Source: Candidatus Burarchaeum sp.
GTDB lineage: Archaea > Micrarchaeota > Micrarchaeia > Burarchaeales > Burarchaeaceae
Assembly: GCA_030646255.1 (NCBI GenBank)
Contig: JAUSNF010000009.1
Span: forward strand, 1-47,931
Direction: 5' to 3'
DNA: 47,931 bases
Below the pieces are notes generated by a model. It saw only the letters and a program-made list of their open reading frames with translations. It did not search any database and had not been told where the DNA came from. Positions 28,126 through 36,498 of the stretch are shown piece by piece (position 1 is the stretch's first letter; the number at the start of each line of letters is the position of its first letter). The translations under genes were made by a program, and so were the position numbers.

Positions 28126-28389
28126 ATGCATACTTGGCGCGGAAGGATACTCCGCTTTACGAATGCAGCATACTGGGAGCTTTACAAACACGGTCTTTCG
28201 CCAGAAGACGTAATTGATGTTCTGGATAACGGTTATGACTTCCCGGGAAAACAACGAAGCGAAGGCATTTATGAAAAATGCCTTCGGAAAGGTTGCGAGA
28301 TTATCAAAGTAGTGGTGGCCGAGTCATATTCGTTTGATATAAAAGAAACCGTGTGGGCGGTCGTCCACGTTATGGTTGTGAGGACATGA
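28126..28389 (+). CDS. Putative toxin, DUF4258/BrnT-RelE-like
   Basis: RFTNAAYWELYKHGLSPEDVIDVLDNG...IKVVV...WAVVHV; coupled by ATGA to the next gene. Confidence 0.65.
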   Translation: MHTWRGRILRFTNAAYWELYKHGLSPEDVIDVLDNGYDFPGKQRSEGIYEKCLRKGCEIIKVVVAESYSFDIKETVWAVVHVMVVRT

Positions 28390-28697
28390 AAATTGAGCAT
28401 GATGCGATGAAATGCGTTAAGTGCGGTGGATGGGCGAATCCAGCGAAGCTCAGACTCGACGGTGAGGCTGTGCGCGGCTGGAAATGCGCCTGCGGCGAGG
28501 ACTATATACATGGGGAGGATGCCGACAGGTTGCTGGTTGCGAACAAGGCGCGCAGGGGTCTGCTCAAAACTAAAGTATGCAAGGTTGGTAATTCCTACTC
28601 TATACGAATACCAAAGCCCATAGTTGATGCCCTGAAGCTGAAGGGAAAGACGCTCAGCATACTGCTCGAGCCAAAGCGCCTGGTGCTGGTAGAATGA
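28386..28697 (+). CDS. Putative antitoxin: zinc ribbon + AbrB/MazE domain
   Basis: CVKC...WKCACGE, then KVCKVGNSYSIRIPKPIVDALKL. Confidence 0.78.
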   Translation: MKIEHDAMKCVKCGGWANPAKLRLDGEAVRGWKCACGEDYIHGEDADRLLVANKARRGLLKTKVCKVGNSYSIRIPKPIVDALKLKGKTLSILLEPKRLVLVE

Positions 28698-28957
28698 TTA
28701 TCGATGCCGTTGTAAAGCCCAGCTCGCGCAAGTTCGAAGCCAAACTCGGGCAAGGCGAAGGCGGCAAGCCCCTCCTGCGCGTTTCCCTCACCGAGCCGGC
28801 CGAGAAGAACAAGGCCAATCTGGAGCTCCTCAAGGAGCTCTCGCGCCTGCTGGGCTGCGAGGTGAGGCTAGTTGCAGGCGCAAAGTCGAAGAAGAAAAAG
28901 CTCGAGCTGGCCATTGACGAGGCATCTTTTTACGCGAAGCTTCAAAACCATAAATAG
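28694..28957 (+). CDS. DUF167 (UPF0235/YggU) family protein
   Basis: VKPSS, VSLTEPAEKNKANLEL, LVAGAKSKKK. Confidence 0.88.
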   Translation: MIIDAVVKPSSRKFEAKLGQGEGGKPLLRVSLTEPAEKNKANLELLKELSRLLGCEVRLVAGAKSKKKKLELAIDEASFYAKLQNHK

Positions 28958-28983
28958 TGGGACTTGCGCGAGGAATGCGAACC

Positions 28984-28991
28984 TATAAATA
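28984..28991 (+). promoter_or_regulatory. TATA box of the his operon
   Basis: TATAAATA 24 nt upstream of ATG 29016. Confidence 0.6.
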
Positions 28992-29015
28992 GTGGGAAGG
29001 ACAGAAGGATAGAAT

Positions 29016-29259
29016 ATGAACGGCAGACTCGGGGCTCTCGAAGGGAGGGAGTTCCTTCATCAGGCTCGATTCAAAGGCGCGCCTAGTTCTGCCGCTGCTT
29101 CTGCGTGAGAGGCTCGGCATCGCGAAGGGCGGGCCAAAGGTTGTGGGGCTTAAGATTGTCAGCATAGCGGACGGGCTGGCAACAGTCACAGTCTCGAAAT
29201 CCGAAGGAGTAGCGGGAGCGCTGCCCATATCAAAAAACTCGAAAGAGGTGCGAACATGA
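29016..29259 (+). CDS. AbrB/MazE-like regulator, split by a +1 frameshift at CTT-CAT (29055-29060)
   Basis: ATG 29016 frame reads MNGRLGALEGREFL-H... (stop 29106-08); +1 frame reads IRLDSKARLVLPLLLRERLGIAKG...EVRT* (AbrB core) and has no ATG/GTG/TTG ahead of the core (in-frame TGA at 29017). Confidence 0.7.
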
Positions 29260-29342
29260 ACAAAAAACAGGCGTTGGCAAGGGATGTGCTTCATGCAGTC
29301 CGGCATATTTCCTACTTCCCTCACTTCTACGTCAATTCCTGA
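29256..29342 (+). CDS. His leader ORF / zero-frame N-terminus of frameshifted HisD (28 aa, 3 His)
   Basis: GAGGTG site; ATG overlapping the AbrB TGA; MNKKQALARDVLHAVRHISYFPHFYVNS*. Confidence 0.7.
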   Translation: MNKKQALARDVLHAVRHISYFPHFYVNS

Positions 29343-30594
29343 CTTTATCTCCCTTAGGCGCACAGAGGACAAGAACGCAAGGGAGACTGCGGCGCGGATA
29401 CTTTCAGACGTCCAGTCGCGCGGCTTTTCCGCCATAGCTGCCTACTCGCGGAAGTTCGACGCTTTTAACTTAACCAAGCAAAATTGCCTCATAACGCGTG
29501 AAGAATTTGACGAGGCTGCCTCGCGCGTTACCCCTGGGCAGCGGCAGGCAATGCGAAAGATGAAGGGCAGGTTGGAATCTTTTGCGCTGCTGCAGAAATC
29601 AAAGATGGACGACGTCTCGCAGAAAAGCAAAGACGGCACAACCACATTGAAATTCATGCCCGTGGAACGCGTTGGCATATATGTGCCTGCCGGCCGCGCA
29701 CCGCTATTCTCCTCGCTTTTCATGGCCGCCGTGCCTGCGTGCATAGCCGGCGTGCAAGACTTGGTGGTTTGCACCCCGCCACAAAAGGATGGCAAGGCAA
29801 ATCCATTCATTCTCGCAGCCGCCCGCATGTGCGGCATTGACAAAGTCTGCAAGCTCGGCGGCGTGCAGGCAATCGGCGCGATGGCTTTTGGTGTTGAAGG
29901 GCTTATCAGGCCAGTTGACGTCGTTTGTGGGCCAGGCAATGCTTACGTGAGCGCCGCAAAGCAGATTGTCGCATCTTCAGGTGTGAGAATTGACGTTCCT
30001 GCCGGCCCCTCTGAAGTTCTCGTGATTGCCGACCAATCCGCAAATCCTTCTTTCGTGGCCGCGGATATGCTTGCACAGGCAGAGCACGGAGCCGACAGCG
30101 CGGCAATCTGCATCTGCACATCCATGCGATTGGCCGAACGGGTTTCCCAAGAGCTCGCTGCACAGCTGGCATCTCTTCCTACGCAGAATCCGGCGCGCCA
30201 GTCGATACCAAAATGGGGCCGGATTTTCGTGGTACGGGACATTGACGTTGCGCTGGATGCGGCGAACGCGCTTGCGCCAGAGCACCTTGAGCTGATGGTT
30301 GCGGATGCCCTGAAGTGGCTGCCAAAAATCAAGAATGCAGGTGCGGTCTTCCTCGCGACTGGCGAGGCTTTCTGCGACTACGGGATGGGCTGCGGCAACC
30401 ACATACTCCCGACGAACTCGTCGGCAAGGGCCTGGGGAGGCGTAAGCGTGCAGACTTTCGGCAAGTGGATGTACGTCGAGTCTTTGAGCGCAGGGGCGCA
30501 GCAGAGGCTTGCATGCGTTTCGGCCCTTCTTGCAAGAATAGAGGGCTTGGAGGCGCACGCAAGAGCGGCGGAGAAAAGGGCAGGCGGTGATTAA
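29293..30594 (+). CDS. hisD: Histidinol dehydrogenase (may begin at 29256 via +1 frameshift)
   Basis: VGIYVPAG, GGVQAIGAMAFG, GPGNAYV, IDVPAGPSEV, DMLAQAEHG, APEHLEL, NHILPT. Confidence 0.95.
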   Translation: MQSGIFPTSLTSTSIPDFISLRRTEDKNARETAARILSDVQSRGFSAIAAYSRKFDAFNLTKQNCLITREEFDEAASRVTPGQRQAMRKMKGRLESFALLQKSKMDDVSQKSKDGTTTLKFMPVERVGIYVPAGRAPLFSSLFMAAVPACIAGVQDLVVCTPPQKDGKANPFILAAARMCGIDKVCKLGGVQAIGAMAFGVEGLIRPVDVVCGPGNAYVSAAKQIVASSGVRIDVPAGPSEVLVIADQSANPSFVAADMLAQAEHGADSAAICICTSMRLAERVSQELAAQLASLPTQNPARQSIPKWGRIFVVRDIDVALDAANALAPEHLELMVADALKWLPKIKNAGAVFLATGEAFCDYGMGCGNHILPTNSSARAWGGVSVQTFGKWMYVESLSAGAQQRLACVSALLARIEGLEAHARAAEKRAGGD

Positions 30595-30595
30595 T

Positions 30596-32338
30596 ATGGT
30601 TTCATGGGATGCAAAAAAAGCGGCAAGGAAGGATATAGTCGAGCTTGCGCCATACGTCTGCGCGAGGGACATCTGCAAAAGCGCAGACGTTTTCCTTGAC
30701 GCAAATGAAAGCCCTTACGGTGATGGCGGGCTCAACCGCTATCCAGATTCAGACCAGCTGGAGCTACGCAAGGAACTTGCAAACTATGTTGGCAAGGGCG
30801 TGGAACTGCAAAACGTCCTTGCAGGCAATGGCTCGGATGAGATAATCGACATGGCCATCCGGACTTTTGCAGGGAAGGGCTGCAACGTGCTCTGCGCCTA
30901 TCCTGATTATTCCATGTATGCGATAGCTGCAGCCATAAACGGCGTGGAGGCAAGGCAGGCGGAGCTTGGCAAAGGCTTCGCGCTTCGCGCAGACAAGTTT
31001 CTCGCGCGCGCAGATGCGCGCACGAAAATAATTTTCCTCTCCTCGCCGAACAGCCCTACCGGGCGGGAGCAGCCGCTTGCGGAGATTGAAAAACTGGCAG
31101 CCAGCACGCAGGCACTGGTTTTTGTAGATGAGGCGTATTTCGAATTTTCAGGCAAAAGTGCAGCGTCGCTAATCAAAAAATACAAGAACATACTTGTCAG
31201 CCGCACGTTCTCCAAGGCCTGGGGCCTTGCGGGAATCCGACTTGGCTATGCCGTTTCGTCCCCGGAAGTGATTTCGCTTCTTAGAAAAGTCAAGATGCCT
31301 TACAACGTCTCGCGGCTCGCCGAGCGGGCTGCCCTTTCGGCCCTGAGGTTTGACAAAGCGAAGATGCGCATGAACGTACGGAAGATGCAGCGCGAGCGCC
31401 AGCGGCTTTCGGACGCGCTGTCGTGCCTCGGCTTCTCAGTTTTTCCATCAAGCACAAACTTCCTTCTCTGCCGTTGCCCGACAGGCACGAGCGCACCGAG
31501 ACTTCAGAAGCGCTTGATGGCCCAAGGCGTCATCATCCGCGATTTTTCTGCGAAACGCAGGCTTGAAAACTGCGTCAGGATAACCGTGGGCAAGCCAGCC
31601 GAGAATTCCCGCCTTCTTTCAGCCATGCGTAAGCTAGCCGGCCTGCAATTCGATGCAGTCATATTCGACATGGACGGCGTGCTCGTCGACGTCAGGCGCT
31701 CGTACCAGGTGGCAATAAGGAAAACGGCAAATGAACTGCTTGGCAAGGATGCGATTCGCGCATCTGATGTTGCTTCAATAAAGTCAAACCCCTGGTTCAA
31801 CGATGATTTTGACGCAACATTCCGCCTCGTAACCCTTGCGCGCGAGTGCAGGCTTTCTGCTGCAAAATGCGCAACAAGGGTAAGCGCGCGAGAGCGGAAC
31901 AGCAAGGAGTATGCGCGCGCAGTCGAAAAATTCCAGTCCCTGTACCTGGGCAGGCGGTTCACCGGGCTGATACGGAATGAAAAGCCGCTAATCTCCTTGG
32001 CAACACTTGAAAAGCTCAGGTCTGCGGGCCTGGCGCTTGGAATTGCGACAGGAAGGTCGAGGGCCGAAGCCCTTTTCGCAATCCGCAAGAACGGATGGTC
32101 CGAATACTTTTCAGCAGTGGTGTGCGCCGAGGACCGCGGCCGCAAAAAGCCGTTCCCCGACTCGCTCCTCCTGGCGAAGAAACTGCTCGGAGCAAAGAAT
32201 CCGATTTACGTGGGCGACAGCCCTGCGGATGCGCTGGCTGCAAGAAATGCCGGCATGCCGTCTGCAATGATTTGCGACCTTAGCGGAGATTTTGCACTTG
32301 CGAAGACGGACGCAATAGTTGGCGTGGTGATTGGATGA
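30596..32338 (+). CDS. hisC: Histidinol-phosphate aminotransferase fused to C-terminal HAD phosphatase
   Basis: LDANESP, NRYPD, GNGSDEII, VDEAYFEF, SRTFSKAWGLAGIRLGY; from about 31649 FDMDGVLVD, ATGR, KPFP, YVGDSPAD. Confidence 0.93.
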   Translation: MVSWDAKKAARKDIVELAPYVCARDICKSADVFLDANESPYGDGGLNRYPDSDQLELRKELANYVGKGVELQNVLAGNGSDEIIDMAIRTFAGKGCNVLCAYPDYSMYAIAAAINGVEARQAELGKGFALRADKFLARADARTKIIFLSSPNSPTGREQPLAEIEKLAASTQALVFVDEAYFEFSGKSAASLIKKYKNILVSRTFSKAWGLAGIRLGYAVSSPEVISLLRKVKMPYNVSRLAERAALSALRFDKAKMRMNVRKMQRERQRLSDALSCLGFSVFPSSTNFLLCRCPTGTSAPRLQKRLMAQGVIIRDFSAKRRLENCVRITVGKPAENSRLLSAMRKLAGLQFDAVIFDMDGVLVDVRRSYQVAIRKTANELLGKDAIRASDVASIKSNPWFNDDFDATFRLVTLARECRLSAAKCATRVSARERNSKEYARAVEKFQSLYLGRRFTGLIRNEKPLISLATLEKLRSAGLALGIATGRSRAEALFAIRKNGWSEYFSAVVCAEDRGRKKPFPDSLLLAKKLLGAKNPIYVGDSPADALAARNAGMPSAMICDLSGDFALAKTDAIVGVVIG

Positions 32339-32946
32339 AAACGAAAACAACGAAAATAGCACGGACAGCAAAAATCAAAAGAAAAACCGGCGAGACCGAC
32401 ATAGCGCTCGCGCTAACTCTGGACGGCAGCGGCAGGTCCGAAATCGCAACGGGCATCGGCTTTTTCGACCACATGCTCTGCTCGTTTGCAAAGCACGGCC
32501 TTTTCGACCTGGAGCTCTCGGCAAAGGGCGATTTGCAGGTCGACCAGCACCACTTGGTGGAGGACACTGGCATAGCGCTAGGCGAGGCATTCGCAGCAGC
32601 GCTTGGCGACAAGAAGGGCATAGCGCGCGCAGGCAGCTTTGCCTTCCCGATGGATGAAACTCTTTCGCTGGTGTCCGTGGATTTCGGCGGGAGGTCTTTG
32701 CTCACGTTCGACGCCAAATTCTCCCGCGGGTTCATCGGCCGCCTGCAGTCGGACCTCGTGCGGGAATTCTTCGCGGGCTTTGTGCAGGGTGCGCGCTGCA
32801 ATGTTTGCGTGCGGCTCCTGTACGAAGGCAATGACCACCACAAGTGCGAGGGAATATTCAAGGGCTTTGCCCGCGCGCTGGCGCAGGCTTGCGAAGTCAG
32901 GGCACGCGCAGGGGCTGCGGTGCCTTCGACAAAAGGGGTGATTTGA
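32335..32946 (+). CDS. hisB: Imidazoleglycerol-phosphate dehydratase
   Basis: RKTGETDI, GFFDHML, DQHHLVED, PMDE, NDHHKCE, PSTKG. Confidence 0.97.
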   Translation: MKTKTTKIARTAKIKRKTGETDIALALTLDGSGRSEIATGIGFFDHMLCSFAKHGLFDLELSAKGDLQVDQHHLVEDTGIALGEAFAAALGDKKGIARAGSFAFPMDETLSLVSVDFGGRSLLTFDAKFSRGFIGRLQSDLVREFFAGFVQGARCNVCVRLLYEGNDHHKCEGIFKGFARALAQACEVRARAGAAVPSTKGVI

Positions 32947-33806
32947 TGGAAGAAAAATTCAGATTGGTGATACCGAACAAGGGCGTGCTGTACGAGCCCA
33001 CGCTCCGGCTGCTCGAGTCCGCCGGCGTGAGCGTAGGCCGGAACGGCAACGGCGGCCTTTTCTCGAAGAGCAAGGACGGGAAGCTGTCAATACTCTTCGC
33101 GCGGGCGCAGGACGTGCCGCTCTACGTGGAAACCGGCGCCGCGGACGCAGGGATAACTGGGGAAGATATGGTGTATGAGAAAGGAAAGCGCGTGAAGGTA
33201 GTGTCCAATCTCGGCTACGGCAAGTGCCGCGTATCTATTGCCGTACCCAAATCATCTCGAATAACTTCGGTCTCGCAGCTCGCGGGCAAGCGCATAGCAA
33301 CAAAGCTTCCCAACATCGCGCGCGAGTATTTTGAAAAGGAGGGCTTGAAGGTCGAGCTGCTCGAGCTGGCCGGTGCAACCGAGCTGGCGCCAAACATTGG
33401 CCTCGCGGATGCGATAGTGGATCATGTGAGCACGGGTGCCACCCTCGAAGCCAACAACCTCAGGGAGCTCAGCACAATTTTGGAATCCGAGGCTTGCCTG
33501 ATATCGCGGCCGGAGGCTGCAAAAAAACCGGAATTGCAGGAGCTGCAAATCGCGTTCGAGGGCGTGCTCCGGGCCAAATCTTCGCGGTACCTCATGCTGA
33601 ATGCGGCCAGCGATGAAATACTGCGTAACGTTCTGTCGTGCCTGCCCTCAATGGAAAGCCCGACCGTGCTCAAGCTTGCCAGGGCGGGTGAGTATGCTGT
33701 GCACTCAGTAGTGAAGGCTGAGGAACTGGGCGTGCTAGTGCCCAAACTCAAGCGGGCAGGCGCAAAGGACATTCTGGTCCTCGCAATGGAGCGGGTGATA
33801 TTGTGA
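32946..33806 (+). CDS. hisG: ATP phosphoribosyltransferase (long form)
   Basis: IPNKG, RAQDVPLYV, GITGED, IATK, GATELAP..GLADAIVD..STGATL, C-terminal regulatory domain (ESPTV...GAKDILV). Confidence 0.96.
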   Translation: MEEKFRLVIPNKGVLYEPTLRLLESAGVSVGRNGNGGLFSKSKDGKLSILFARAQDVPLYVETGAADAGITGEDMVYEKGKRVKVVSNLGYGKCRVSIAVPKSSRITSVSQLAGKRIATKLPNIAREYFEKEGLKVELLELAGATELAPNIGLADAIVDHVSTGATLEANNLRELSTILESEACLISRPEAAKKPELQELQIAFEGVLRAKSSRYLMLNAASDEILRNVLSCLPSMESPTVLKLARAGEYAVHSVVKAEELGVLVPKLKRAGAKDILVLAMERVIL

Positions 33807-34393
33807 TAGGGCTAGTGGATTTCGGCAGCGGGAATTTCCGCAGCGTTTCGCTGGCTGTGCGCAGATGCGGAGACCGCGCAAAAGTGGTCCGCCGGGAGCG
33901 CGAGCTGCAGAAACTCAATGCACTCATCCTGCCGGGCGTGGGCTCTTTTGAGGTGTTGAAGGGCCAAGATGCGCTGGTGCGCGGCATACGGAAATTCGCG
34001 GCGAGCGGCAGGCCTGTACTTGGTATATGCCTGGGCATGCAAGCCCTGTTCGAGCGCAGCGAGGAATGCGCTGGCGTAAACGGCCTCTCGCTAATTCGGG
34101 GTGCAGTGAAAAAACTCAACGCTCCGCGCCTGCCGCAGATGGGCTGGAACCAGCTCCGCATAATCCGAAACTCGCAGTTGCTGGACGGGATTGCGGATGG
34201 CACCCATTTCTATTTCGCGAATTCCTACGCATGCTTTCCTGAGGAAGATGTCGTTTCGGCAGCATGCGATTATGACGGCGAGTTTGCGGCTGTCGTGGAA
34301 AAAGAAACTTTCTTCGGCGTGCAGTTCCACCCTGAGAAGAGCGGGGAGGCGGGATTGCGCGTGCTGAAGAATTTCGTTGAAATGTGCGGGTGA
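33803..34393 (+). CDS. hisH: Imidazole glycerol phosphate synthase glutaminase subunit
   Basis: DFGSGN, LPGVG, LGICLGMQ, PQMGWN, GVQFHPEKSG. Confidence 0.96.
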   Translation: MIGLVDFGSGNFRSVSLAVRRCGDRAKVVRRERELQKLNALILPGVGSFEVLKGQDALVRGIRKFAASGRPVLGICLGMQALFERSEECAGVNGLSLIRGAVKKLNAPRLPQMGWNQLRIIRNSQLLDGIADGTHFYFANSYACFPEEDVVSAACDYDGEFAAVVEKETFFGVQFHPEKSGEAGLRVLKNFVEMCG

Positions 34394-34397
34394 TGGG

Positions 34398-35111
34398 ATG
34401 CGATTGATAGGGGCATTAGACTTGTCAGATGGGATGTGCGTGCGCCTTGTGCGCGGAAGGCTAGCTACAGCTAAGGTTTACTATGCAAACCCGCTTGACG
34501 CGCTGGCGGCGCTTGAGAAAGCGGGCGCGGATTCCGTACATGTCATTGACCTTGACGCGGCCATCTTAGGGGAGCGGCGGAATGCAGGCGCAATCTTTGC
34601 AATTCTCAAGCAGGCCTCCCTGCCCGCGCAGGTTGGCGGCGGGATACGCTCTTTGGCCACTGCAAGGGAACTGCTAGATGCTGGCGCAGAGCGTGTGGTC
34701 GTTTCGAGCGCGCTCGCCGAAGACACCGGGCTTGTACGGACAATGTGCGAAGAGCTTGGAGGTAGGCGAATAGCCGCGGCCATAGATGACGATAAAGGCA
34801 GGACTATGACTCGGGGCTGGACTTCAAATGCAGACAGCAGCGCGGGCCATCTTGCCAGAAAGGCTGCTTCATTGGGCGTTTCCGAAATAATTTACACAGA
34901 CATCTCGCGGGACGGCTCGCTCGAAGGGCTGAATGAAGAAAATGCAAGAGCTTTCATACGCGGAAGTCCCCTGCCCGTTGTCTTGGCGGGAGGCGTGGCT
35001 TCAACAGCTGACGCACTCAGGGCAGAGCGCGCAGGCGCAGCGGGGCTCATAGTGGGCAAGGCATTCTACGAAGGAAAATTCAACTTCATGGAGGCGAGGC
35101 GATGCTTGTGA
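34398..35111 (+). CDS. hisA: ProFAR isomerase
   Basis: ALDLSDGMCVRLVRG, HVIDLDAA, QVGGGIRS, YTDISRDG, GLIVGKAFYEG. Confidence 0.95.
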   Translation: MRLIGALDLSDGMCVRLVRGRLATAKVYYANPLDALAALEKAGADSVHVIDLDAAILGERRNAGAIFAILKQASLPAQVGGGIRSLATARELLDAGAERVVVSSALAEDTGLVRTMCEELGGRRIAAAIDDDKGRTMTRGWTSNADSSAGHLARKAASLGVSEIIYTDISRDGSLEGLNEENARAFIRGSPLPVVLAGGVASTADALRAERAGAAGLIVGKAFYEGKFNFMEARRCL

Positions 35112-35869
35112 AACGTATAATTCCATGCCTCGACTGCACCTTCGTGCGCGGAAAGCCGCAGGTTGTGAAGGGCACGCAGTTCAGGCGCCTGAAATATGCT
35201 GGTGTACCTTGGGAACTAGCCGAGCAGTATTATGCAGCTGGCGCGGACGAAATAGTCTTGCTCGACATAAGCGCATCAAACGAGGGCAGAAAAACAATGG
35301 CCGACATTGTGCGCAGGACCACGGAAAATGTCTTCGTGCCCGTGTGCATCGGAGGCGGCATACGCTCAGTCAACGATTTTAGGCGCATGCTGAATGCTGG
35401 CGCGGACAAGTGCGCGATAAACACAAGTGCAATATTGAATCCTGCGCTCATACGCAATGCGTCAAAAATATTCGGCAGCAACTGCGTCGTGGTCTCGATA
35501 GATGCCAAGAAGTTCGGGCAGCGCTACGAATGCATGATTTACGGAGGCAGGAAAAGGGCGGGCCTGGATGCGATTGAATGGGCTAAAAAAGCCACTGAAC
35601 TGGGCGCAGGCGAAATACTTCTCACATCCGTGGATGCGGACGGCACAAGGGCAGGCTATGATTTGGAGCTCTTGCGCAAAGTATGCGATGCCGTGGATGT
35701 GCCCGTAATCGCAAGCGGCGGATGCGGCTCGCCCAAGGATATGCTGGCCGCATTGAAGCAGACCGACGCGAGCGCAGTTCTTGCGGCAGGCATCTTCCAC
35801 TACAAAAAATACTCGATTCGGCAAGTGAAAAAATATCTTGAAAAAAATGGCGTGGAGGTGAGGCTATGA
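35102..35869 (+). CDS. hisF: Imidazole glycerol phosphate synthase cyclase subunit
   Basis: MLVKRIIPCLD, VVKG, GADEIVLLDI, GAGEILLTSVDADGT, PVIASGG. Confidence 0.97.
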   Translation: MLVKRIIPCLDCTFVRGKPQVVKGTQFRRLKYAGVPWELAEQYYAAGADEIVLLDISASNEGRKTMADIVRRTTENVFVPVCIGGGIRSVNDFRRMLNAGADKCAINTSAILNPALIRNASKIFGSNCVVVSIDAKKFGQRYECMIYGGRKRAGLDAIEWAKKATELGAGEILLTSVDADGTRAGYDLELLRKVCDAVDVPVIASGGCGSPKDMLAALKQTDASAVLAAGIFHYKKYSIRQVKKYLEKNGVEVRL

Positions 35870-36498
35870 AACTGAACAAAAGGGCTGCCGTTGAATTTGC
35901 AAAAGGCATGGACTTCAAAAAGCAGGGCGGCCTCGTGCCCGCAATAGTGCGAACGCCGGAATGCGAGGTGCTGATGCTTGCCTACATGAACCAGGAAGCG
36001 CTGATGCGTACGCTCACCACTGGCAAAATGTGGTATTACAGCAGGAGCAGGCGCAGGCTTTGGAGGAAAGGAGAGGAAAGCGGCAACACGCAGAAGCTCC
36101 TTGCAGTCGCAAAGGACTGCGATTGCGATTCGCTTCTCTTTACAGTTGAGCAGAAAGGGCCTGCGTGCCACACGGGAAACAAAACCTGCTTTTTTCCAAC
36201 CAACTCCACGCCGGAGCCTTTCTCGCTAGCCGAGCTCTTCTCGCTAATCGAGGAAAGGAAAAAATCCGGAGACAAAAAATCCTATACGCGCAGGCTTTTG
36301 GACGACAAAAACCTCCTCTCATCAAAAATCTACGAGGAGAGTGCCGAGCTTGTCGAGGCATCCAGGAAAAAGGAAAAGAAGGAAGTCGTGTGGGAGGCCG
36401 CAGATTTGCTGTACCACATGTTCGTGCTGCTGGCCTCGAAAAATGTTTGCCTTGGCGACATCGAGCGGGAGCTGGCGAGAAGGCGGAAAGAGAAGTAG
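35866..36498 (+). CDS. hisIE: Bifunctional PR-AMP cyclohydrolase / PR-ATP pyrophosphatase
   Basis: YSRSRRRLWRKGEESGN, DCDCD, ACHTG..TCF; SYT, KIYEESAE, WEAADLLYH. Confidence 0.96.
   Translation: MKLNKRAAVEFAKGMDFKKQGGLVPAIVRTPECEVLMLAYMNQEALMRTLTTGKMWYYSRSRRRLWRKGEESGNTQKLLAVAKDCDCDSLLFTVEQKGPACHTGNKTCFFPTNSTPEPFSLAELFSLIEERKKSGDKKSYTRRLLDDKNLLSSKIYEESAELVEASRKKEKKEVVWEAADLLYHMFVLLASKNVCLGDIERELARRRKEK

Follow-up and report, generated by a model that had tools for sequence, protein, structure and literature searches.

The window analysed here is a stretch of 47,931 nucleotides from contig JAUSNF010000009.1 of Candidatus Burarchaeum sp., and it belongs to a metagenome-assembled genome of 1.21 Mb in 61 contigs that is 84% complete (G000; the window lies on contig C16). 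Micrarchaeota are a DPANN archaeal lineage. On the forward strand the window carries a full histidine operon, spanning 29284-36498, and ahead of it a small AbrB-like gene with two short leader ORFs (Table 1). The HAD-type hydrolase domain fused to hisC in one ORF (30587-32338) is probably the histidinol-phosphate phosphatase, and the same fusion was seen in many relatives. Directly upstream lie two more genes (28353-28697 and 28694-28957), the first for a protein of 114 residues that has Cys pairs and, at its C terminus, a MazE/AbrB-type domain (PF04014, E 1.8e-6), the second for a DUF167 (YggU) protein. A DUF167 gene also precedes the cassette in the relatives G002 and G003 and on one metagenome contig.

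The AbrB-like frame is shut upstream by the TGA at 29017-29019, and no ATG, GTG or TTG lies in it ahead of the core IRLDSKARLVLP. The first-pass annotation had described such a closed frame, with an ATC as the only conceivable start and a stop that overlaps the next ATG, and this holds in every part; the ATC is at 29059, the earliest canonical start is a GTG at 29143, within the domain, and the TGA at 29257-29259 shares its bases with the ATG at 29256 (ATGA). The alternative in-frame ATG that it gave for hisD, at 29293, is also there, together with a second one at 29284. The leader ORF is read in the -1 frame relative to AbrB, and its peptide runs ..G-R-E-F-L-H at the putative shift site, where the CTT-CAT pair coincides exactly with the +1-frame start of the core F-I-R-L-D-S-K-A-R-L-V-L-P. 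The leader-frame ATG is kept in relatives. The 0 and +1 frames overlap from 29020, after the TGA at 29017, to 29108 with the shift site inside, which is the split-ORF layout of a programmed +1 frameshift.

Table 1. Positions of the regulator gene, the two cassettes and the histidine operon in the window.
Feature	Position	Strand	Remarks
Distal box AAATAGTGGGA	28951-28961	+	11-mer
Proximal box AAATAGTGGGA and TATA-like ATAAATAG, candidate promoter and operator	28986-28996	+	
Leader ORF, 0 frame	29016-29108	+	30 codons; ATG 29016; stop TGA 29106-29108; -1 frame relative to AbrB
AbrB-like frame, unshifted	29020-29256	+	79 codons; stop TGA 29257-29259
Purine-rich Shine-Dalgarno-like stretch, possible stimulator	29040-29051	+	Ends 3 nt before CTT
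Nucleotide-level conserved block	29053-29140	+	Synonymous sites included; seven closest relatives; holds predicted hairpin 29076-29135
Putative shift site 1, CTT (P site) and CAT (His, A site)	29055-29060	+	+1 reading TTC ATC
AbrB/SpoVT-like regulator, +1 frame from TTC	29056-29259	+	67 codons; stop TGA 29257-29259; profile match to solved AbrB and SpoVT N-domains
Second leader ORF	29256-29342	+	28 codons, ..A-R-D-V-L-H..; ATG overlaps AbrB stop
Putative shift site 2, CTT CAT	29289-29294	+	+1 reading TTC ATG continues into hisD
hisD	29284-30594	+	Histidinol_dh E 7e-137; in-frame ATGs 29284 and 29293
Rest of the his operon	30587-36498	+	hisC fused to a probable HAD phosphatase, hisB, hisG, hisH, hisA, hisF, hisIE

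The naming of the product as an AbrB-like regulator stands at the level of the family and not at that of the single protein. Against Pfam the window protein matched MraZ alone (E 0.05-0.15) and did not reach the gathering score of PF04014, to which 9 of 17 relatives have weak matches (best E 6.6e-5). The family profile matches solved AbrB-type N-domains, 2glw with E 3.8e-4, 2k1n with 3.6e-3, 1z0r with 3.8e-3, 1yfb with 6e-3 and SpoVT with 0.05. The core aligns to AbrB residues 11-44, and about five residues of the domain must therefore come from the leader. A monomer model had a mean pLDDT of 65, and its top Foldseek rows were AbrB, SpoVT and MazE, none of them significant (E 0.4-1.9). The protein resembles the AbrB/SpoVT/MazE domain weakly, in its core motif and its profile similarity, and it differs in that another reading frame encodes the first residues of the domain and that its C-terminal half (..S-K-N-G-x-E-V) is without matches.

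The three closest relatives, one of the same genus and two of the same family, all have the 0-frame ATG, the +1-frame core and the joint TTC-CTT-CAT, and the arrangement is identical in eight more metagenome contigs. The 0-frame codons ahead of the site in G003 differ synonymously (CGT for AGG, GGA for GGG, GAA for GAG), so that G-R-E is retained, and the first change past the site, ATA for ATC, leaves the +1-frame residue unaltered. Two other studies have independent public assemblies that span 29016-29151 and 29016-29179, in which substitutions but zero indels are seen past the ATG; the only indels in them are at 28971 and 29014, both 5' of it.

Over the first 26 AbrB codons of six close relatives we counted 53 synonymous to 13 non-synonymous codon differences in the +1 frame, with the other two frames giving 18:43 and 0:61. 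The +1 frame downstream of the site is under purifying selection. In the first nine leader codons of the same six relatives no frame-specific selection signal was found in any frame. It was also observed that the synonymous sites of the conserved block are near-invariant over three genera, with identical choices of Leu codons. This conservation reaches past the 0-frame stop, which implies that neither dual coding nor the hairpin predicted there, itself unsupported, can fully account for it.

To see how far the arrangement extends, a profile made from 17 cores was searched in a class-level sample of 401 Micrarchaeia MAGs, and all of the 72 places found, in 68 genomes, were parsed. In 63 of the 72 a short upstream ORF leads into the regulator frame by a +1 step at a sense codon, with His (CAY) as this codon in 59 places and Trp (TGG) in 4. 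The joint is [CG]TT-CAY in 54 places, [CG]TT-TGG in four, and ATT-CAT, GGC-CAC or GCC-CAC in five that were read by hand; a plain ATG start was found in six, and three have the leader M-G-E-L-[QR]-R with an ambiguous type of entry. The codon preceding the sensor is usually CTT or GTT. The proposal of a frameshift at the His codon, and not a pseudogene, is strongly supported by the comparative data, and homologs down to about 35% protein identity have the disruption at the same codon pair. The homologs that lack the disruption are the six with a plain ATG, which come from other families, and random decay was seen in none of the 72.

A phase test gives the same picture. In the 81 nt before the core of the 72 places [CG]TTCAY occurs 85 times, 55 times leading +1 into the AbrB frame, 29 times leading +1 into that leader frame and once in the AbrB phase, as compared to 0-9 occurrences for each of eight one-base control motifs in the same regions. 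The arrangement is far beyond chance. What marks a programmed +1 frameshift in comparisons, a site and frames that are kept and a +1 frame under selection, is accordingly found here, in the 63 of 72 places, the phase test and the 53:13 ratio.

Two sites stand in tandem in 30 places, 29 of them found by pattern and one, G134, by hand, and 23 of the 29 pairs found by pattern are spaced 6 codons apart. The middle frame is without any start codon in nine tandem places, where both shifts are therefore required. The sole misfit to the common pattern in a first parse of 43 loci was L137 (G220), with an AbrB frame that begins ATG-TGA and is then open; the likely joint is GCC-CAC-C in ..S-A-H-L-F.., followed by five T. 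The three ambiguous leaders, M-G-E-L-Q-R or M-G-E-L-R-R, belong to AbrB paralogs (L099 in G222, L100 in G141, L097 in G099) and have the Arg codon AGA at the likely joint, and in one of the three, G222, the next genes are argininosuccinate lyase (argH) and ornithine carbamoyltransferase (argF). We keep these Arg-type leaders as a lead only and do not count them as proven switches, since a GTG is present in the AbrB frame and the tRNA would be unable to re-pair.

The second cassette of the window resembles the first. It has the context GGAAGGG[AG]T followed by 3 nt, and with this context it was found before hisD in G002 and before a radical SAM gene in G001 and G003. In roughly 20 other places a second cassette precedes hisD, hisG or uncharacterised genes, and 10 of these are without a start in the downstream frame ahead of the site. 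Together with the 30 tandem places this supports the earlier idea of two His checkpoints in series. In G000 and G002 hisD has an ATG of its own two codons ahead of the TTC, and the shift is thus not strictly required there. A search for further cassettes in G000 found the context motif six times, about the number expected by chance, and the ORF arrangement at these two sites only; hisS in this genome has a plain ATG start. A variant radical SAM gene (NF045502) was seen in place of the his operon, flanked by AbrB and a TIGR00375 PHP-domain gene and behind the same His cassette, in L021 (8705-9898, - strand), L023 (5076-6224, + strand), G097, G112, G118 and G374. The radical SAM gene of G001 was sought in G000 and not found.

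The first or second ORFs downstream of the regulator were named with Pfam and NCBIfam. Behind the 59 His-type places lie his biosynthesis genes in 19, HisRS in 6 and histidine ammonia-lyase in 5, which gives 30 His-related places; the variant radical SAM gene follows in 6, a contig end in 3, and 20 have unrelated genes or no recognisable His-related gene nearby. TrpB2 is next in three of the four Trp-type places (E 1e-167 to 1e-200) and in none of the 59 His-type ones. TrpB2 is present in 65 of the 401 genomes, and among 30 of its loci examined 10 have a CTT- or GTT-TGG leader, the target of which is the TrpB2 frame directly in three, a small ORF with its stop touching the TrpB2 start in four, AbrB in two and a helix-turn-helix protein in one. 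In the windows upstream of TrpB2 CTTTGG occurs 12 times as compared to 5 for CTTCAY. The sensor codon follows the downstream pathway, His or Trp, in these counts, which were taken per place with shared ancestry included.

The TrpB2 loci differ in detail. In L164 (G078), L165 (G081) and L167 (G138) the leader ends ..L-W (CTT-TGG) and the +1 frame continues directly as TrpB2, for which there is no separate start; in L148, L149, L158 and L172 the CTT-TGG leader opens into an ORF of 21-35 codons with its stop touching the TrpB2 ATG, and in L150 (G133) into a helix-turn-helix protein of 66 residues ahead of TrpB2. Another form was observed in L147 (G142), L151 (G334) and L171 (G220), where a -1-frame ORF ending ..R-W-H-[ED]-F-N-stop stands ahead of a small helix-turn-helix gene that itself precedes TrpB2. 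These ORFs may hold a Trp site with CGC or CGG as the P-site codon, on which re-pairing of the tRNA would be impossible. Of the six homologs with a plain ATG, four are also found before hisG or hisD, and two of these four keep the His cassette before hisG, which indicates that the link between AbrB and the his genes is older than the frameshift leader on AbrB.

Upstream of the leader, the 11-mer AAATAGTGGGA has two copies in the 1.21 Mb genome, both just 5' of the leader. In 50 of the 72 places the related TAGTGGGA is found no more than 260 nt 5' of the core, as compared to 7 occurrences in 322 kb of downstream flanking DNA. The distance from ATAAATAG to the ATG is 23 nt in G000, G001 and G002, and three metagenome relatives are alike in the alignment, so the mRNA would be leaderless. 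The regulator probably binds AAATAGTGGGA at its own promoter, as suggested by a conserved box that is unique to this place in the genome. In most sites, though not in G003, a purine-rich stretch, AGGGAT, AGGGGT or GGTGAR, stands 3 nt ahead of the slip codon and may stimulate the shift; the 16S 3' end with the anti-Shine-Dalgarno sequence is absent from the G000 assembly.

An RNA hairpin was considered as the stimulator and rejected, since the 60-nt hairpin in the seven closest relatives has zero covarying pairs and is no better than shuffles (z-score -0.56). RNAalifold over 40 distinct sites gave no structure conserved across the class, and a hairpin drawn by hand 3' of the site, with 58.6% of cells paired, did not exceed the controls. 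Neither an Rfam family match nor a + strand terminator was found among known RNA elements. A leader-peptide transcription attenuator was likewise rejected, because each site has a single His codon and there is no + strand terminator, conserved structure or Rfam family.

A tRNA-Leu(GAG) gene is present in G000, and by wobble rules it can pair with both CUU and UUC. The +1 re-pairing from CUU to UUC would keep three pairs, and the GUU, AUU, GGC and GCC sites would keep only two. CAT is the rarer His codon of the genome (2850 as compared to 4294 CAC). No tRNA-His gene was found in the 84% complete G000, where ARAGORN reports 9 tRNAs, or 21 with introns allowed; many of the 21 contain introns, and one with an intron is called as a suppressor (anticodon TTA), probably a miscall.

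Taken on the sequence evidence, we find it fairly likely that expression of the AbrB-like gene relies on a programmed +1 ribosomal frameshift of an amino-acid-specific "hungry codon" type, and such a switch would probably allow the cells to detect a lack of histidine and to regulate their histidine genes. Ribosomes would initiate at the ATG at 29016 and translate 13 leader codons, until a Leu-tRNA sits on CUU in the P site while the His codon CAU enters the A site. If His-tRNA arrives promptly, the frame would be kept and translation would terminate at 29106 with a peptide of 30 residues. If it is slow, the P-site tRNA would re-pair on UUC with AUC as the next codon, and the trans-frame product would be a DNA-binding protein of the AbrB/SpoVT type. 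The second cassette, which begins on the AbrB stop and overlaps the start of hisD, would then put two His codons in series, and the ATGA overlap may hand ribosomes over to it. We infer that the ribosome makes the shift and does so more often when charged tRNA-His is scarce, as well as the role of the protein.

It is conceivable that the +1 shift is real and conserved but constitutive, giving a low, fixed yield of the regulator and reporting nothing about His-tRNA. About a third of the His-type places are without a His-related neighbour, and the CTT-CAY pair is common in ordinary ORFs: no avoidance of it was seen in the genome's own ORFs, with 181 in-frame cases and observed/expected values of 1.26 and 1.10 in what is a crude ORF set. 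The latter suggests that the pair alone cannot shift strongly and that the context must matter. A device with a fixed ratio would, on the other hand, need neither a constant sensor nor one that fits the pathway, yet His is the A-site codon in 59 places and gives way to Trp where TrpB2 follows, and the His codon stays while the P-site codon varies between CTT, GTT, ATT, GGC and GCC. We regard a constitutive shift as unlikely.

The sensing could also run in the opposite direction, so that abundant histidine together with the nascent leader peptide stimulates the shift, as polyamines do on antizyme, and the regulator is made when histidine is plentiful. The peptide motif R-[DEG]-hydrophobic-L-H is kept, with Arg given by a different codon in G003, and in five places (L093, L095, L098, L101, L104) the catabolic histidine ammonia-lyase is translationally overlapped with the His-type AbrB gene by ATGA. 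Neither the genomes with this enzyme nor five of those with the radical SAM gene (completeness 77-92%; G374 was outside the search) gave a match to hisD. A catabolic enzyme is the wrong direction for a simple coupling induced by starvation, and it fits the hungry-codon switch only if the regulator represses. The same cassette gates hisD, hisG and further downstream genes directly, however, and induction by excess histidine would be senseless for biosynthetic genes, which makes this second explanation quite unlikely.

A third explanation does without a shift. The AbrB frame would be translated from a non-canonical start (ATC, ATA or ATT after TTC) or from an upstream GTG or TTG, and the overlapping ORF would be an ordinary regulatory upstream ORF. 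The codon following TTC is often Ile, and 27 of the 58 places found by pattern have an upstream canonical start of some kind in the AbrB frame (an ATG in 6), so that the shift is not strictly forced there. In the other 31 an upstream ATG, GTG or TTG is absent (an ATG in 52 of the 58), and in several places a stop codon stands immediately before TTC. Furthermore, the +1 frame is open from the site onward also where the site is 5-22 codons before the core, the base 5' of TTC is always C or G though the +1-frame codon to which it belongs is variable and in some places a stop, and the ATH at the AbrB junction is never replaced by ATG, though the CAT would survive this. We therefore hold an own-frame start to be very unlikely.

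Correction of the frame in the RNA, by transcriptional slippage or editing, seems most improbable. Known transcriptional slippage sites need long A or T runs, but a homopolymer run is absent at the site (C-TT-C), and slippage or editing would give no reason for a His or Trp codon. Among the RNA runs searched, none contains the locus. Least of all can the locus be an ordinary pseudogene or the product of an assembly indel, as might be thought for a MAG in so many contigs, and the comparative sequence data already refute this reading, with the same arrangement in places from many studies, purifying selection downstream and other assemblies free of indels.

Regulatory +1 frameshifting as such is already known from prfB, antizyme and Ty1, and the frameshift proposed here shares something with each of them. 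The E. coli prfB gene for release factor 2 has an autoregulatory +1 site with a Shine-Dalgarno-like element, 3 nt, CUU and then UGA. The spacing of 3 nt from the purine-rich stretch to the slip codon is the same here, but a sense codon (His or Trp) occupies the A site, and charged tRNA would thus be sensed instead of release factor; moreover, the host is archaeal, the sites are often in tandem and the product would be a DNA-binding regulator. Antizyme (OAZ) is made by a polyamine-stimulated +1 frameshift, and it is alike in that the shift acts as a sensor which yields a feedback regulator of the same pathway. It differs in being eukaryotic, in shifting at a stop codon and in being stimulated by the end product rather than by shortage.

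Leader-peptide attenuation in bacterial his and trp operons and the T-box leaders report charged tRNA. Regulatory codons for the operon's own amino acid in a short leader ORF are common to these systems and to the cassettes, but the former use runs of codons and alternative terminator hairpins, whereas the latter have single codons, one or two of them, lack a conserved hairpin or terminator and have a change of reading frame as the output. In the yeast Ty1 frameshift at CUU-AGG-C, as described in a 2016 recoding review, the P-site Leu-tRNA re-pairs while the A site awaits a scarce tRNA (PMC5009743). The re-pairing of a Leu-tRNA from CUU to the +1 codon during such a wait is what we propose here as well; the difference is that Ty1 relies on a constitutively rare tRNA and a fixed ratio, while in Micrarchaeia the waiting codon matches the amino-acid pathway downstream.

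There is in our view an even chance that Micrarchaeia use a family of amino-acid-specific "hungry codon" switches as a main cis-regulatory device, for His (NUU-CAY), for Trp (CUU-UGG) and perhaps for Arg. In each case the leader ORF would hold one or two sensor codons, and only ribosomes starved of that charged tRNA would slip +1, into a small regulator (AbrB-like or helix-turn-helix) or directly into hisD, hisG or TrpB2. For functional trans-frame proteins from hungry-codon frameshifting under starvation, the same review states that "no examples are known" (PMC5009743). Our literature search, which covered its sources in part, returned no report of such a switch and no description of amino-acid gene regulation in DPANN archaea.

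The family of loci is thus a candidate for the first example, and it predicts that a changed sensor codon would change the amino acid that is sensed. Gene callers will truncate or miss such regulators, and also the N-termini of hisD, hisG and TrpB2, and the cassette, about 40 nt long, could be used in engineering as a small sensor for tRNA charging. If the interpretation is true, the tandem sites would give a steep, squared response, and these loci would be the first case in nature where starvation drives a frameshift with a functional trans-frame protein as its product, and an archaeal counterpart of attenuation and T-box control.
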